A DNA stretch of 47,208 nucleotides, taken from IMG/VR virus record IMGVR_UViG_2721755498_000001; one strand, written 5' to 3'. A model generated the notes under the pieces. The model worked only from the letters and a program-made list of their open reading frames with translations, searched no databases and was not told where the DNA came from. Shown here piece after piece: positions 1 to 47,169 of the stretch. This DNA is from a virus. Its lineage: Duplodnaviria; Heunggongvirae; Uroviricota; Caudoviricetes. The translations under genes and the position numbers were made by a program. Numbering within the stretch: position 1 is the stretch's first letter; the number at the start of each line of letters is the position of its first letter.

Positions 1-300
1 ATGGATGATGTGATCATCTCGTCAAACGATTTGGCCCAATTACAAGCGGCTTACGACGAAGCACTAGTGGCAATGCGTAAATCTGGTTATCAAGCCAACA
101 TGAGTAAAACTCAGGCACCATCGTCAAAGATTAGCGTGTTTAATTTAACTTTGAGTAAGGGAGTTATGAAAGTCACATCTCAGAAAATGAGTGACTTCCT
201 GATTGATTTCTATTCAAGCAATTATGAGCCGCACAGAATAGGGGTCAAAAACTACGTCGAAGCTGTTAATCCAGGGCAAGCGAAACTCTTTAAGTTGTAA
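1..300 (+). CDS. Hypothetical protein, possibly N-terminally truncated by the window edge; lies outside the prophage
   Basis: 99-codon ORF ending at 300; no motif recognised; sits left of the att repeat. Confidence 0.3.
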   Translation: MDDVIISSNDLAQLQAAYDEALVAMRKSGYQANMSKTQAPSSKISVFNLTLSKGVMKVTSQKMSDFLIDFYSSNYEPHRIGVKNYVEAVNPGQAKLFKL

Positions 301-408
301 TTGCGATCGCATGTAGTAGCAACTGGGCTTGACTGAATGTCTGCCGCCATTTTGCCGCCACTACTAAAGAAAAAAGGGCTACGCTTTCACGTAACCCCTT
401 GATTTATT

Positions 409-441
409 TGGTGGAGCTGGCGGGAGTTGAACCCGAGTCCG
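409..441. repeat. attL: direct repeat of the ssrA 3' end (prophage boundary)
   Basis: 409-441 tggtggagctggcgggagttgaacccgAgtccg matches 46807-46839 at the ssrA 3' end with one mismatch; the first 27 bp are identical. Confidence 0.85.
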
Positions 442-513: not shown

Positions 514-1413
514 TTATGTCTGGATGTGGTCGTCAACACATCCTCTTTTAAATACAGGCGCTTTTACCTTAGTTGGATCATCTGTTTTAAAGATTTTCAA
601 TCGTTCACTGAAGAACATTACCTCAGATCCTTTGTACCGATCTTGAGCACTGTAGTTTATTCCATATACTAATGAGGATGTCTTATACATAGCTTGGATC
701 TCAGGAGTGTTATCGTAAGAAACAATCCAAGGCGTTTTAATATTATTCTGTACGACTTTTGCAACCCTAACATGATCATCATGATCATAATGGTTGATAT
801 ATAAGCCTTTACCTTTTATGTAATAAGGTGGATCCAAATAGGTTAATGAGTTTTGTGGCAATTGAATAACTATTTTTTTTATGAAATCAATTGCATCCAT
901 GTTATATAAATCTATTCTGTGACGATTTTCTGATATTCTATGGATTCGAGAAATCAAATCACTCTTATTATAGCGAGCGTCAAGCTTCCATTTCCCTTCT
1001 TGATTTTTACCGCCAATTACACCACCTTTTAATATTCCAGAACGATTTGTTCTATTGAGAAAAAAGGTTGAGAAACCAATTGTTAAAAGATCATGGTCTT
1101 TAGGATTATTAATTATATCTTTCTGCCTAAACCATTCATCCATTGTAACTTCTGTTCTTTCAACTAAAGAACATAATTGATCTGCATGATTTAATACACT
1201 GTGCCAAAAAGCATAAACAGAAATATTAATATCATTAAGGATGATTTTTTCAGCTGCATTTAGATGTAACAGTTTCAATGCTAAACCAGCACCCCCAGCA
1301 TATGGTTCGGCATAATGTATAGGCGAAAGATTATTTTCTTCAATAATCCGAAGCATGAAATTTGCAAGCTTGCCTTTACCGCCAGGATAGCGAAGTGGGG
1401 TGTTAAAACGCAT
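514..1413 (-). CDS. Dam-family (alpha-class, D12-like) DNA N6-adenine methyltransferase
   Basis: Motifs YPGGK, EPYAGGAG, LNRTNRSG and DPPYY align with E. coli Dam WAGGK / EPFVGAGS / LNRYGYNG / DPPY; RBS AGAGGT before the ATG; visibly AT-rich region. Confidence 0.85.
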   Translation of the reverse strand: MRFNTPLRYPGGKGKLANFMLRIIEENNLSPIHYAEPYAGGAGLALKLLHLNAAEKIILNDINISVYAFWHSVLNHADQLCSLVERTEVTMDEWFRQKDIINNPKDHDLLTIGFSTFFLNRTNRSGILKGGVIGGKNQEGKWKLDARYNKSDLISRIHRISENRHRIDLYNMDAIDFIKKIVIQLPQNSLTYLDPPYYIKGKGLYINHYDHDDHVRVAKVVQNNIKTPWIVSYDNTPEIQAMYKTSSLVYGINYSAQDRYKGSEVMFFSERLKIFKTDDPTKVKAPVFKRGCVDDHIQT

Positions 1414-1492
1414 ATGATACCTCTAAATGTCAGATCTAAAGTATATCAAAAAAAGGGCTTTATGGCCATCACATAAAACCCTTTTTAATCAA

Positions 1493-3226
1493 TTAGTTAT
1501 TTGACAGATATGATGAGATGGTAGCAGAATCGACACCATGTCCACTTATCATAATAACTTTAAGACTCTTTATTAGTTCATTCTTGAAGCTATCCGATTG
1601 CACAGGATTTTTCTCGACCCAATATCGATATGGGTTATCTTTAACTCGTCCTTTGACTTGGTCCTGAAATTGAGTCGTATGTGCAAAATCTTTAAACAGT
1701 TTTCTCACTCTCCCGCCATGATTTTTGTTAACTTTTTTATAATTATCTATAAGGATTTTTAAATCAATCGGAGCGTTACCAATCTTTAGCGTTGTAATTA
1801 TGTCTTTAGCTGTTTTCATAAAAACAGATTTTGTAAATTTATTTTTATTTTCCCAATATGCATCATCAGGTGGTAAATTATATAAAAACTCAAAAATCAT
1901 TTGATCTGGAGGTAAGGTGCTTGGAAGCAAACATAAGTTTTTTTCTTTTTTGGCTTTTTTTGCATTAGCACTGTTGTCGTGAACAACATCACCGTCTAAG
2001 ACGATCAAGCTTTTAGCTGTAAATTCTGGTATTTTTCTTGCCATTAAGTCAAGCATGGCAGAGCAGCTAATATTTATATTCCCTAATGGATTTAATATTT
2101 TATTTATTTTTCGATCTGTTATCAATTGTTTGAAAAAGTCGAAACCTTCTTTGTCTTCAAAATATACATTTGCTTTTGGAAGACAAATGTCATCATTAAT
2201 TTTTACAGTTTCAACATGTAAATCAGCGTGGATATCTGTCCATGAAAGATTATTCTTTGTTTTAATATCTCCATATGTGTCTGTAAGATATATTGTTTTA
2301 AAGCTATCACTATCTTGTTTTGAACGATTATAGATATCCTCTATTATTAATGGAGAGTGCGAGGTCATGATTATTTGCAGATCGTATTGTTTTGCTGCTT
2401 TAGTTAGAATATTAATTAACTCTAACTGTGCAGCAGGGAAAAGACCTGCATCGGCTTCATCAATTAACAATATTCCGCCATGATAATCAGAATAAGTTTC
2501 CTTCAATCTTTTAAATGAAAAAATTGCTTGGATTAATTGTCCAACATTATCTTCACCAACAGATACTGATTGGTGATCATAATTGTCACCATGGACAACC
2601 ATTGAATCGATAGTACCTTTTGTTGCTGTTACTGAGCTTCCATTGTTTTTTAGTAAGAGTTGGTTACTCATCATTCTGATTTCATCAGAATTTTCATTGA
2701 TGTACTGAACATCCCGTGTTGAGTAATTAGTCCTTAATGTAATAGGAAGAAGTCGTGCTAAGCTTAAAAAAATAACAGGATGAGTAACGTTTCTACTTTG
2801 GTTTTTTTCCGGTATTGAATCATTTCCCCTGACTACAGGCCTTGATTTATCTCTGTCACTGTAGCTGTATAAACCTAATGTTAGTTTTTCAAGATGTTTG
2901 TTCGATGCACCATCATAGACACTAATTTTGACGTCCATTGAACCAGGAACATCAAATTGTTCTGAAAGCCTAAAATGTTCGCTGAAAGCTGACTTGAAGC
3001 TGCCATTTGTTAATGTTTTATATTGTGTTAAATCAGTCTCAGGTTTTTTGGTAAAGTCCTTTGTAAAGCTAAATATTTGGGCGATAATGCCAAGAATTGT
3101 GGATTTAGATGTGCCATTTTTACCACAAATAACAGTTAGGCGAGAACCAAACTCGATGTTTATATTTTTCAGTCCGCGAAACTTCACAACATTTATATTT
3201 TTTAGTTTGGTAATTTGATTTGCCAT
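1493..3226 (-). CDS. ABC-type ATPase (OLD/GajA-like) with putative C-terminal TOPRIM nuclease domain
   Basis: Walker A GKNGTSKST, Walker B ILLIDEADAGL, H-loop TSHSP; C-terminal E...DxD pattern (YFEDKEG ... IVLDGD) typical of TOPRIM. Start taken at the internal ATG (MANQITK) with upstream GGAG; the ORF is open to 3277. AT-rich; co-oriented with int. Confidence 0.7.
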   Translation of the reverse strand: MANQITKLKNINVVKFRGLKNINIEFGSRLTVICGKNGTSKSTILGIIAQIFSFTKDFTKKPETDLTQYKTLTNGSFKSAFSEHFRLSEQFDVPGSMDVKISVYDGASNKHLEKLTLGLYSYSDRDKSRPVVRGNDSIPEKNQSRNVTHPVIFLSLARLLPITLRTNYSTRDVQYINENSDEIRMMSNQLLLKNNGSSVTATKGTIDSMVVHGDNYDHQSVSVGEDNVGQLIQAIFSFKRLKETYSDYHGGILLIDEADAGLFPAAQLELINILTKAAKQYDLQIIMTSHSPLIIEDIYNRSKQDSDSFKTIYLTDTYGDIKTKNNLSWTDIHADLHVETVKINDDICLPKANVYFEDKEGFDFFKQLITDRKINKILNPLGNINISCSAMLDLMARKIPEFTAKSLIVLDGDVVHDNSANAKKAKKEKNLCLLPSTLPPDQMIFEFLYNLPPDDAYWENKNKFTKSVFMKTAKDIITTLKIGNAPIDLKILIDNYKKVNKNHGGRVRKLFKDFAHTTQFQDQVKGRVKDNPYRYWVEKNPVQSDSFKNELIKSLKVIMISGHGVDSATISSYLSNN

Positions 3227-3250
3227 GTTTGTATCTTGCTCCGTAAAATG

Positions 3251-3267
3251 GCCACAAATTGTGGCCA
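3251..3267. promoter_or_regulatory. Perfect 17-bp palindrome between int stop and ATPase start (terminator or operator candidate)
   Basis: ggccacaaattgtggcc at 3251-3267; followed by ATTTTA on the minus strand. Confidence 0.3.
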
Positions 3268-3284
3268 ATAGTTTCATGCTTGGA

Positions 3285-4451
3285 TTATATTGTTATCTTC
3301 TTCAAGCTTGTTTGTCCATCATATTCCTTCAGATATGAGCCATAGTGCCTGAAAAGCATCTCCGGTCCTTTATGCCCCATTTGAGCTGCAAGCCAAAACA
3401 GGTTTGCTCCCCGGCTGATATGGCGGGTGGCGAATGTATGCCTAGTTTGATATGGATTTCTGTAACGAATACCTGCTTTTCGCAATGTTGGCACCCATGC
3501 TTTTTTTCTGATTGCATCAGCACTTGCCCATGGCTTATTGGTCTTTGGATCTTCAAAGACAGTAGCATCCTTCATGAATGTAAATGGCTTCTGGTTTATC
3601 AACGCCAACATTGCTTCTTCAGTCAGTTCAACTTTACGGGTACCGGCTTTTGTCTTTGTTCCTTTGATAACTCCGACAACACTTGCGCTCTGAACATGGG
3701 CTGTTTTTCCAACAAAGTCGATATCATGCCATCGTAGGGCACATAATTCAGAACTACGCAGGCCTGTATGTATGGCGAACCGGAACAGATTTTCCCATTG
3801 TTTGTTTCCGGCTGCTGCTAGTAATGCATCAACTTCTGCTGGTGATAGCGGATCAACCACATAGCTGCTTTCTGCTTCTGACTTATCACTTTGGTAGCGC
3901 GAAGCTGTTACTAACGATACGGGGTTAATTTGAAGTACCCCATCGGTCACGGCTTCATCAAGTGCTGACCGTAGGAAAGATAACTGGTTGCGAATGGTTT
4001 TTAAGGTTGTTTTCTGGCTTTGAATCCACGCTTTCAGGGTTGCTGGTGTTAATTCACTTGCAGGGCAAATGTGAAGTGAGGCTAACGCACTACGGCATTT
4101 TTTATAGCCACCAATCGTAGAGGGTGAAAGTTTTCTTGTTTCGCAGATTTCAAGATATTCGTCCAGGTACATCTTTACCGTTTTGCCTGCAGCAGCATTA
4201 CCAAAAATTTTCAAACGAGCAGAACGGGGAAAATATTCTGCATAAATGAATGTTCCCCTTTCGATCTTATTATGGATTTCGCCGAGTGTACGCTCGGCGT
4301 ATTTAATGTTCTTTGGTGTTACTTCCAGATTGGAAAGCGGCTCACGACATCTAACTCCTTTGTAGGTGAAAGTTATATTGATCGTTTCTCCCTGGCGGTG
4401 TTTCCTGATTGTTACGCCGCGCGGTAGTTTGAGCAGTTTTGTCTGGCCCAT
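3285..4451 (-). CDS. int: Phage integrase, tyrosine recombinase
   Basis: 388 aa; C-terminal catalytic region with R...H..R...Y context (HTFATRHISRGANLFWLAAQMGHKGPEMLFRHYGSY); next to xis and the att end. Confidence 0.9.
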   Translation of the reverse strand: MGQTKLLKLPRGVTIRKHRQGETINITFTYKGVRCREPLSNLEVTPKNIKYAERTLGEIHNKIERGTFIYAEYFPRSARLKIFGNAAAGKTVKMYLDEYLEICETRKLSPSTIGGYKKCRSALASLHICPASELTPATLKAWIQSQKTTLKTIRNQLSFLRSALDEAVTDGVLQINPVSLVTASRYQSDKSEAESSYVVDPLSPAEVDALLAAAGNKQWENLFRFAIHTGLRSSELCALRWHDIDFVGKTAHVQSASVVGVIKGTKTKAGTRKVELTEEAMLALINQKPFTFMKDATVFEDPKTNKPWASADAIRKKAWVPTLRKAGIRYRNPYQTRHTFATRHISRGANLFWLAAQMGHKGPEMLFRHYGSYLKEYDGQTSLKKITI

Positions 4452-4659: not shown

Positions 4660-5550
4660 TTAACGAATAGTGTCGTTACTTTGAAGTACAGCAAATGCCA
4701 TTAATACTTCTAAAGTATATCTTCTATAAAATTTAACAAAACCAACATAGAAAACATAGACGAAGAAAAAGCTAAGCATTATTGAAAGTAAACTATAAAG
4801 ATAATCACTATGAGTACATAATCGATAAATAAAGGTTGGAACTGATACCCAAAATGAAATTATAAAGATTAAACATATGTTTCTGCAAAAACCATATAAT
4901 GCAACATAGTTTTGAATTTTTGTTTGATGTTGTTTTGAAAACTCATAAACATAATGATATGCCAATCTGAAGAGATCATCATCAAGTCCGTTTTTATCTT
5001 GTAATAATTGGCGATTTGTTATGAACTTTTTCTCATAACCTTCTTTGATCATTAACCATGTTGTATTAGCTAAATGAAATGGTAGAGATTGAGAATAACA
5101 TAGTTTTTGTGTTATAAAATCCCATAGTATTATTGGACATAATACGCATTTGATTATGCGATTCTTTATTTTTGTTTTTTTATCAGCGCTTCTCTCATCG
5201 CATGATGGGCTACAAATGCTTTCTGAGGTATCTATCAATTTTTTAAATAGATATTTGGAAGGATATCCTAATTCTTTATTCATGTATTTTTCGATAAAAA
5301 ATGCTGACGTGATAGAAATAAAATGTCCAGCTATATAAGATATAATAACTATTGAAGCGTAGTTCAAAATGCCAAAGATTTGACTTTGACCTCTGAGCAA
5401 TTCACTTAAGTCAATAACAATATCTAGATCGAATGTCAAACCACAGAAATACATTAATAGGATAAAAAAACCACCTGGTATTAAATATCCAAGAAAGTCA
5501 TAGAATGAGAATGGATTTTGATTCATTGTTGCTCTCCAATAATTTTTCAA
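4660..5550 (-). CDS. Multi-pass membrane protein of unknown function (AT-rich moron)
   Basis: 296 aa with hydrophobic helices at both ends and a soluble middle; strongly AT-rich DNA unlike the flanking phage genes. Confidence 0.55.
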   Translation of the reverse strand: MKNYWRATMNQNPFSFYDFLGYLIPGGFFILLMYFCGLTFDLDIVIDLSELLRGQSQIFGILNYASIVIISYIAGHFISITSAFFIEKYMNKELGYPSKYLFKKLIDTSESICSPSCDERSADKKTKIKNRIIKCVLCPIILWDFITQKLCYSQSLPFHLANTTWLMIKEGYEKKFITNRQLLQDKNGLDDDLFRLAYHYVYEFSKQHQTKIQNYVALYGFCRNICLIFIISFWVSVPTFIYRLCTHSDYLYSLLSIMLSFFFVYVFYVGFVKFYRRYTLEVLMAFAVLQSNDTIR

Positions 5551-46806: not shown

Positions 46807-46839
46807 TGGTGGAGCTGGCGGGAGTTGAACCCGCGTCCG
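46807..46839. repeat. attR core: ssrA 3' end, duplicated at 409-441
   Basis: Matches 409-441 with one mismatch. Confidence 0.85.
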
Positions 46840-47169
46840 AAATTCCTACATCCTCGGTACTACATGCTTAGTCAGTCTTTACATTCGCTTGCCAGCTGCG
46901 GACGGACACGCCACTAACAAACTAGCCTGATTAAGTTTTAACGCTTCAACCCCAGGCAGGACTTCCACGCGATCTCTTTTGGGTTTGACCTCTCTTGATC
47001 CCCGTCCTAAGAGCGGAGGCTAGGGAGAGAGGGCTCTAAGCAGGTTATTAAGCTGCTAAAGCGTAGTTTTCGTCGTTTGCGACTATTTTTTGCGGCTTTT
47101 TACGAGGCCAACCGCCCCTCGGCATGCACCTTGGGTTTCGCAAATCCCGTCGAATCCAGAATCAGCCCC
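46807..47169 (-). ncRNA. ssrA: tmRNA (SsrA), 363 nt
   Basis: Reverse complement runs from GGGGCTGATTCTGGATTCGACGGG to the tRNA-like 3' end CCAGCTCCACCA; tag-encoding region recognisable. Confidence 0.95.

Follow-up and report, generated by a model that had tools for sequence, protein, structure and literature searches.

We analysed a window of 47,208 nucleotides (the whole stretch of DNA held in IMG/VR as record IMGVR_UViG_2721755498_000001), which is identical to the chromosome of Escherichia coli strain H1 (NZ_CP010160.1) and contains a lambdoid prophage of 46 kb integrated in ssrA. The subject of this work is a two-gene cassette at one end of this prophage, composed of a gene for an ABC ATPase fused to a TOPRIM-like domain (hereafter, the ATPase) and a gene for a DNA methyltransferase. 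The cassette is probably an unnamed, effector-swapped variant of the phage defence system PD-lambda-5, in which defence would be coupled to methylation.

A first-pass annotation of the window, made from the sequence alone, had placed two co-oriented genes between the stop codon of the integrase gene (int) and the att site, in AT-rich DNA. Both statements hold: the two open reading frames (ORFs), 514-1413 and 1493-3277, lie on the minus strand, and the GC content is 0.30-0.36 over positions 600-3200, compared to 0.42-0.46 in int and 0.41-0.43 leftwards. The end of the cassette had been set at 3287, a position that already belongs to int (3285-4451), as the final base of its stop codon. The features of the cassette are the following.

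514 to 1413, minus strand: D12-class DNA methyltransferase of the PD-Lambda-5_B family, 299 aa, with motif I at residues 36-44 and DPPY at 194-197
1440 to 1468, minus strand: promoter-like element of the methyltransferase gene, TGGCCA-17 nt-TATACT with an extended TG, from a promoter scan
1448 to 1486, minus strand: terminator-like hairpin and T-run straight after the ATPase stop, with TGGCCA in the loop, from the sequence and a minimum free energy (MFE) fold
1493 to 3226, minus strand: protein of 577 aa in which an ABC ATPase is joined to a TOPRIM-like domain, with the start given by RefSeq and by distant homologues
2222 to 3226, minus strand: ABC ATPase module of this protein, residues 1-335, with AAA_15, AAA_21 and SMC_N matches
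1496 to 2194, minus strand: C-terminal TOPRIM-like domain with a helical extension, residues 345-577, with E357, D358, D411xD413 and a conserved LPPDQ at 438-442
3249 to 3267, no strand assigned: perfect palindrome of 19 bp, TGGCCACAA-T-TTGTGGCCA, in the interval from the int stop to the ATPase ATG

The two proteins and their regulatory DNA

The longest ORF of the ATPase gene, 1493-3277, encodes 594 aa; the start of the 577-aa protein is its 17th codon (M17), and the upstream ATG at 3277 is an alternative. In PHROGs the protein belongs to phrog_3940 (5e-200), labelled "unknown function". The ABC-ATPase motifs noted in the first-pass annotation are well supported. Indeed, Pfam AAA_15 (1.9e-15), AAA_21 (4.5e-12) and SMC_N match the protein, as do the PADLOC models PtuA, AriA, GajA, and NsnB (1e-14 to 3e-20), and the sequence presents a Walker A motif (G35-T43, including K41), a signature-like SVSVGEDNVGQ, a Walker B motif (D256-E257), and an H-loop (H290). 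These motif residues, together with a C-terminal E...DxD pattern, do not vary among 36 homologues with identities as low as 50%.

The E...DxD pattern had been read as compatible with a TOPRIM nuclease. When the full-length protein was modelled with AlphaFold (predicted local distance difference test, pLDDT, 86), the top PDB matches were the Thermus OLD protein (6p74) and GajA, with E 1e-10; their alignments span 573-691 columns and rank above the ATPase-only PtuA structures. Modelled alone, the C-terminal domain reached a pLDDT of 93 and showed the order beta-alpha-beta-alpha-beta-alpha-beta, with strand 1 ending in E357/D358 and strand 3 in D411xD413, the candidate catalytic residues. The TOPRIM proposal is supported by a real and invariant pattern and by a TOPRIM-like topology, but not by direct matches: in the fold search with Foldseek the hits were weak (best E 0.26), the first two being the C-terminal part of Xanthomonas OLD, and OLD, GajA, and AriB ranking first among these weak matches. 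The domain alone matched no Pfam or PADLOC model, and a PDB profile search returned only chance matches to INCENP. Among the profiles that had been put forward for the cassette, AAA_15, AAA_21, and MethyltransfD12 were found, but the OLD-type TOPRIM and DUF4435 were not.

A profile of the C-terminal domain finds 418 cluster representatives. Relatives of about 500 aa align with the domain of the window protein (hhalign E 7e-40), match over their entire length the PADLOC model of retron I-B ATPase-Toprim, and match HEC-04 in both the ATPase and the TOPRIM part (residues 3-410). The fold, the topology with its motif placement, and these relatives, as intermediates to HEC-04 and retron I-B ATPase-Toprim, make it likely, though not proven, that the C-terminal domain is a divergent TOPRIM nuclease domain.

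The window ATPase resembles the OLD family in its architecture (an ABC ATPase at the N-terminus and, at the C-terminus, a putative metal-binding domain that carries Glu and DxD), in its best full-length fold matches, and in being carried by a prophage in the manner of a lysogenic-conversion gene. It differs from OLD proteins in that sequence similarity is limited to the Walker A and B regions, no OLD or DUF4435 TOPRIM model of Pfam matches, a conserved beta-rich insert (about residues 55-215) occupies the place of the helical dimerisation insert of OLD and GajA, and the partner is a methyltransferase. When aligned to P2 Old with hhalign, only the Walker B region was matched. A conserved all-helical tail (residues 455-577, about 120 residues) is missing in the relatives of about 500 aa, and our searches found no counterpart for either the insert or the tail.

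As regards the named systems with this type of protein, the first-pass annotation was right that the locus lacks the UvrD-like partner of Gabija: the ATPase gene has int and the methyltransferase gene as neighbours, and no adjacent UvrD/PcrA-like helicase (GajB) was found. The DUF4435-type TOPRIM of PARIS (AriB) is not recognisable by model in the window ATPase. Among the single-gene ABC ATPase-TOPRIM proteins (HEC-04 and IbfA), HEC-04 is matched at 2.5e-16, but over two short ATPase stretches (best residues 25-70) and not over the full length; furthermore, the window protein has about 120 extra C-terminal helical residues and is tied to a methyltransferase. The OLD classes that have been described are the single gene (class 1, P2 Old/TsOLD), the gene with a UvrD-like helicase (class 2, GajA), the retron (class 3, retron I-B/Eco8), and the split AriA/AriB form (class 4, PARIS), with no methyltransferase context among them (PMC10568477). 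The cassette, if its two genes function together, would add to these four a fifth, methylation-linked context.

The methyltransferase matches Pfam PF02086 (MethyltransfD12) at 4.1e-19, with 69.8 bits against a gathering score of 22, and contains an FxGxG-like motif; G40, G41, and D194-P195-P196-Y197 are invariant in 13 members of its family. The PADLOC model PD-Lambda-5_B (PDLC04018) covers residues 1-282 of 299 at E 1.1e-123, and MTase_II (PDLC03358) matches at 8e-108. The protein had been called a complete Dam-family N6-adenine methyltransferase. It is of the D12 class, with intact motifs, but it falls short of the cut-off of NCBIfam TIGR00571 "dam" (55.2 bits against 114.85), and the N6-adenine assignment is not established, because the nearest characterised relative, M.CbeI, makes N4-methylcytosine (m4C) in GGCC.

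M.CbeI (7M6B) is the only sequence-related structure in the PDB, at E 1e-16 with the single sequence (64 bits) and 1.8e-30 with a profile; DpnM is matched far more weakly (2e-09). M.CbeI, which like DmtB is an alpha-class m4C enzyme acting on GGCC, carries DPPY and a D12 "adenine" annotation, as the window protein does, yet its N4-methylcytosine product was shown experimentally (PMC3425538). The two proteins are remote (64 bits), and M.CbeI works alongside the CbeI endonuclease in a type II system of the classical kind. By analogy, the label "DNA adenine methylase" may be wrong for the family of the window methyltransferase, and the modified base could be N6-methyladenine or m4C in a GGCC-containing site. 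The link to M.CbeI is a caution for methylome work that relies on such labels. The methylome paper on ST131 gives no motif for accessory methyltransferases, although JJ1886, a strain of that lineage, carries the cassette.

Domain scans of the cassette found no PD-(D/E)XK, HNH, GIY-YIG, or PLD domain, and thus no such restriction endonuclease beside the methyltransferase. We also considered avoidance of GGCC as a footprint of a system directed at this site and discarded it: GGCC occurs at 0.54 of expectation in the prophage and at 0.52 in 50 kb of the H1 core genome, and a similar depletion in both is uninformative. TGGCCA is not depleted in the window (15 occurrences against 16.4 expected).

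The spacer between the ATPase and the methyltransferase genes is 79 bp long. Its MFE fold has -25.9 kcal/mol (83 nt folded); as a conserved terminator, the hairpin was rejected, being kept only in close relatives. The promoter-like element is conserved more widely. In 27 of 43 unique spacers, the methyltransferase ATG is preceded at 45-61 nt (mostly 53-61) by a TGGCCA with a -10-like hexamer after it; the chance expectation of TGGCCA is about 0.8% per 21-nt window, and a binomial value computed on this basis ignores relatedness. This conservation extends to Pseudomonas, in lineages with methyltransferases of about 45-50% identity. In the regulatory regions of the cassette, TGGCCA is found at 1463-1468, 3249-3254, and 3262-3267. 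The last two sites belong to the palindrome upstream of the ATPase gene, which could be an operator or a terminator-like element of int; paired TGGCCA sites at -21 to -41 are kept in relatives of 76-78% identity (loci L017, L018, and L021).

Judging from its positions, TGGCCA may serve as a -35 element, as an operator, or as the target site of the methyltransferase itself. It contains GGCC, the site of M.CbeI, and the conservation of this GGCC-containing palindrome in the promoter of the methyltransferase suggests that the enzyme may have its own target there. A methyltransferase promoter that is independent of the nuclease gene is the typical organisation of restriction-modification (R-M) systems.

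Conservation of the pair and relation to PD-lambda-5

We evaluated if the two genes occur together in other loci, starting from the ATPase (79 IMG/VR loci, and a further 8 loci from Pseudomonas, Yersinia, and Enterovibrio) and, separately, from the methyltransferase; viral contigs gave more than 150 loci overall. The methyltransferase is also present in 63 of the 79 IMG/VR loci of the ATPase, and 58 of these have it immediately downstream and co-oriented, a count in which two loci with a frameshift-split ATPase ORF are included. Four loci end just past the ATPase gene, which leaves the downstream position out of view, and 12 are without methyltransferase: ten from an orphan clade (L067-L076), one orphan-like (L086), and one at a contig end (L087). 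When the 8 further loci are included, both genes occur in 71 loci, 64 of which have intact ORF calls, with the genes co-oriented and 4-102 bp apart. Counted over the assessable loci, the methyltransferase adjoins the ATPase in 71 of 75. The identity of the ATPase to its window copy correlates with that of the methyltransferase (r = 0.90).

The insertion contexts of the cassette are unrelated. They include the int-att junction at ssrA (the window), the end facing icd of an e14-like element in E. coli L65, the position beside a cI-type repressor in Pseudomonas aeruginosa prophages, in Yersinia an interval flanked by the lysis genes and Q, the P2 gpA-portal hotspot (in reversed gene order and with an ATPase about 25% identical), and the interval between cI and int in the Streptococcus phage Javan645 (ATPase 25% and methyltransferase 46% identical). 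Among 5,426 complete E. coli genomes, 85 carry the cassette, always as one chromosomal copy, including strains 042 and ST131 JJ1886. The comparison of these loci shows the cassette to behave as a mobile two-gene unit of temperate phages, with genes inherited and moved together. Adjacency, order, and correlated divergence kept over Gammaproteobacteria and Streptococcus, in at least six insertion contexts, are hard to explain without functional linkage. The conserved pairing supports the functional link that the first-pass annotation had proposed for a candidate defence module.

The arrangement of the window is also found in the Citrobacter phage phiNP (OR565852.1, locus L176; 43.9-44.85 kb of the record), where the ATPase is annotated and the methyltransferase is not; the DNA match to the window continues at 85% identity through this unannotated methyltransferase stretch.

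The two genes do not always remain intact together. The ATPase is decayed by a frameshift or by a 1.1-kb insertion, with the methyltransferase intact, in four loci (L066, L088, L063, and L023), and the reverse was seen in none. The orphan ATPases (L067-L076 and L086), about 41% identical to that of the window, keep all the catalytic motifs and lie directly downstream of a cI-like S24 repressor; no methyltransferase of the window family was found within 5 kb of them.

The family of the methyltransferase connects the cassette to PD-lambda-5, a validated two-gene prophage system composed of a ParB/HEPN protein (A) and a methyltransferase (B), which was obtained from ECOR7 in a selection for resistance to phages and acted on nine of the ten phages tested (PMC9519451). 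Only the A+B form of ECOR7 was tested for protection, and the cloning host was deleted for the mrr region (PMC9519451), which suggests that the PD-lambda-5 methyltransferase is active in E. coli. The cassette and PD-lambda-5 share the family of the methyltransferase, the organisation (a gene of the NTPase-nuclease type, about 500-580 aa, upstream of a methyltransferase of about 290 aa, with a gap of roughly 70 bp), the prophage niches, including the P2 hotspot, and, in many loci, the TGGCCA element upstream of the methyltransferase. They differ in the partner, which in the cassette is an ABC ATPase-TOPRIM and not a ParB/HEPN protein. No PD-Lambda-5_A gene lies beside the window methyltransferase: on one side is the ABC ATPase, whose best PADLOC matches (PtuA, AriA, and GajA) include no PD-Lambda-5_A model, and on the other the att site. 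With respect to methyltransferases of this one family, the ATPase has precisely the upstream position that PD-Lambda-5_A otherwise holds.

To describe this exchange of partners, we took a census of 79 loci seeded with the methyltransferase. The neighbour is a relative of the ABC ATPase in 36 loci, a relative of PD-Lambda-5_A in 30, both in 2, and neither in 11, a ratio that is only indicative because the census is biased to methyltransferases like the query. Among the 11 loci with neither partner, four are without upstream sequence and one retains only an ATPase remnant. TGGCCA lies 45-65 nt upstream of the methyltransferase in 9 of the 30 PD-Lambda-5_A loci and in 4 of 8 loci without a recognised partner. 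The canonical A+B form occurs in E. coli itself, in the P2 hotspot and after Q. Furthermore, a complete PD-lambda-5 pair and the ATPase occur together in three-gene versions (L008/L009, L052, L060, L104, and L166), in several gene orders: L060 is an A-B-ATPase operon, and in an Enterovibrio locus the ATPase is convergent with the A-B pair, whose A protein scores PD-Lambda-5_A at 4e-207.

On this comparative evidence, one methyltransferase family seems to take either the ATPase or the ParB/HEPN protein as its partner, or to add one to the other, and we consider it likely that the cassette is a functionally coupled defence cassette related to PD-lambda-5. If the pairing is functional, PD-lambda-5 would be one face of a modular family, in which one small methyltransferase serves ParB/HEPN effectors, ABC-TOPRIM effectors, or both together.

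The first-pass annotation had regarded the pairing as undescribed. No name for the pair was found in PADLOC-DB 2.0, NCBIfam, or PHROGs, and the names of both proteins in public sources are only generic. Likewise, the literature on PD-lambda-5, on OLD, TOPRIM, and methyltransferases, and on prophage ATPases and methylases gave no published name; the work of Krishnan et al. (2020) on conflict systems with ABC ATPases was outside this search and may describe such neighbourhoods. The text and supplements of DefensePredictor hold no identifiable match to the pair, and Rousset et al. (2022) mention no methyltransferase in their main text. The claim of an undescribed pairing stands as regards the name, but the methyltransferase clearly belongs to the PD-Lambda-5_B family, and the cassette is therefore better described as an effector-swapped variant than as a wholly new pairing of unrelated parts. 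The joining of OLD-type ABC ATPases to R-M-like systems has already been published (PMC12839542); it is the specific pairing that is unnamed. PADLOC-type rules, which need both A and B, would not call the window locus; about half of the methyltransferase family escapes rules in which the ParB/HEPN gene is required, including the copies in 85 of 5,426 complete E. coli genomes.

Possible mechanisms

How the two proteins could act together is a more tentative matter. The reading that we favour, at a little under an even chance, is restriction-like. The methyltransferase would mark the resident DNA (host and prophage) at a short motif, and the ATPase-TOPRIM would be an NTP-driven effector that acts on nucleic acid, either DNA or tRNA, upon the entry of unmarked phage DNA. 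The separate promoter would let the modification be set up independently of the nuclease. The restriction-like reading is based on the position of the ATPase in the PD-Lambda-5_A slot, on the methyltransferase having its own promoter, on the asymmetry of decay, and on the membership of the methyltransferase in a defence-validated family; within it, the self-marking role of the methyltransferase is plausible, although unproven. The cassette would offer a compact two-gene system for asking how an ABC-TOPRIM effector separates self from non-self, a question that is open for P2 Old and Gabija.

Some observations weigh against this restriction-like reading. Most OLD-type proteins that have been characterised act as abortive sensors, and two of the characterised ones are transfer RNA (tRNA) nucleases, so a model in which the ATPase guards the methyltransferase fits at least as well. 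Three-gene loci already contain a complete PD-lambda-5, to which the ATPase looks like an addition. The existence of the orphan clade implies that the nuclease is not inherently dependent on the methyltransferase. Lastly, the decay asymmetry counts four cases only, some of which could be assembly errors.

In the guard model, the ATPase would be a suicide effector of the PARIS or PrrC kind, possibly a tRNase, silenced by the methyltransferase or by ongoing methylation. It would fire when a phage inhibits or depletes methylation, for example with anti-restriction proteins or S-adenosylmethionine hydrolases, and the methyltransferase would be bait and not a self-marker. PrrC-EcoprrI and RloC are R-M-linked ABC-type ATPase-anticodon nucleases and, like the backup modules of BREX and R-M-like systems, place an ABC-type NTPase-nuclease beside a DNA-modification system, as the cassette does. 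The cassette differs from them in its modification side, which is one small methyltransferase without HsdR/HsdS, PglZ, or another effector, and from PrrC and RloC also in a nuclease domain that is TOPRIM-like and not HEPN. P2 OLD (PMC12445682) and AriB (PMC12409363) are reported to cleave tRNA and PARIS to sense the anti-restriction protein Ocr (PMC12839542). OLD-ABC/TOPRIM proteins have been described as backup suicidal effectors of BREX and R-M-like systems, with modification proposed as the first line and suicide as the backup (PMC12839542), and Vassallo et al. interpret PD-lambda-5 as a compacted prophage "RM+Abi" system (PMC9519451). The addition of the ATPase to complete A+B pairs and the tolerance of the orphan clade for an ATPase without methyltransferase also agree with a guard. 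However, the common two-gene form holds no other nuclease for the methyltransferase to serve, and an enzyme that is bait only would keep its full catalytic motifs for no restriction purpose. A decayed ATPase beside an intact methyltransferase is what a toxin-antidote or R-M arrangement predicts, though a guard predicts the same. Overall, we regard the guard model as the main rival, possible but rather unlikely.

Another possibility is that the two genes are independent morons that are merely carried together, with the methyltransferase in an anti-restriction role, shielding phage DNA from the host upon induction or infection, and the ATPase acting as a stand-alone defence of the class-1-OLD or HEC-04 type. 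Stand-alone ABC-TOPRIM defence genes do exist (HEC-04, IbfA [PMC12111858], and P2 Old), partnerless methyltransferases are common in prophages (PMC4659465), the orphan clade supports the autonomy of the ATPase, and the methyltransferase has its own promoter-like element. Independence is nevertheless improbable in view of the adjacency, order, and correlated divergence of the pair across its hosts and contexts, and of the exact PD-Lambda-5_A slot taken by the ATPase. We give still less credit to the possibility that the pair serves mainly for post-segregational killing and prophage retention, as some R-M systems do, with defence secondary or absent. The positions in the lysogeny module (beside int, att, or cI), the decay asymmetry, and the R-M-like organisation with a separate methyltransferase promoter would all fit such an addiction module, but the related PD-lambda-5 was selected for phage resistance and protects broadly, and distant versions of the cassette occupy the P2 hotspot, which is a known defence locus (PMC9519451). 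Addiction and defence are, moreover, not mutually exclusive.

The restriction-like reading could be extended to a new kind of R-M system, a proposal that we hold to be doubtful. In it, the OLD-type ABC ATPase-TOPRIM, driven by ATP, would restrict, while an M.CbeI-like methyltransferase of the D12 class would mark a GGCC-containing site (possibly TGGCCA, and possibly as m4C) and regulate its own expression through the -35 element; the ParB/HEPN protein and the ATPase would be interchangeable readers of the mark. To our knowledge, TOPRIM is not among the catalytic folds described for restriction endonucleases.

Insertion site and neighbouring genes

The features that define the insertion of the prophage are the following.

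408 to 441, minus strand: att core, the duplicated 3' end of ssrA at the prophage end beside the cassette, 34 bp with 1 mismatch to the tmRNA gene
3285 to 4451, minus strand: tyrosine integrase, given as context and outside the cassette, with matches to Arm-DNA-bind_2 (1e-23) and Phage_integrase (1e-16)
46807 to 47169: complete tmRNA gene (ssrA), at the right prophage end

The original terminator hairpin of ssrA is found at 373-400, at the left end with the 34-bp copy. Similarity to other E. coli genomes starts only at 405-407 and proceeds rightwards from there. Together with the att core at 408-441, this indicates that the cassette fills the gap between the integrase stop (3285) and the end of the prophage.

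Just beyond this prophage end, the window starts inside a gene for a 186-aa "reverse transcriptase domain-containing protein" (positions 1-300, plus strand), whose C-terminal part matches RVT_1 at E 3.6e-05. In H1 this gene abuts an IS1, and in other E. coli the DNA at this position is different.

On the other side of int, a second AT-rich island (4660-5550, minus strand, GC 0.28-0.30) encodes a protein of 296 aa, apparently membrane-associated, which belongs to phrog_12528 (unknown function) and matches the PADLOC model Csx27 weakly (1.4e-05). In JJ1886 the same slot holds other small genes, and it therefore looks like a variable moron position.

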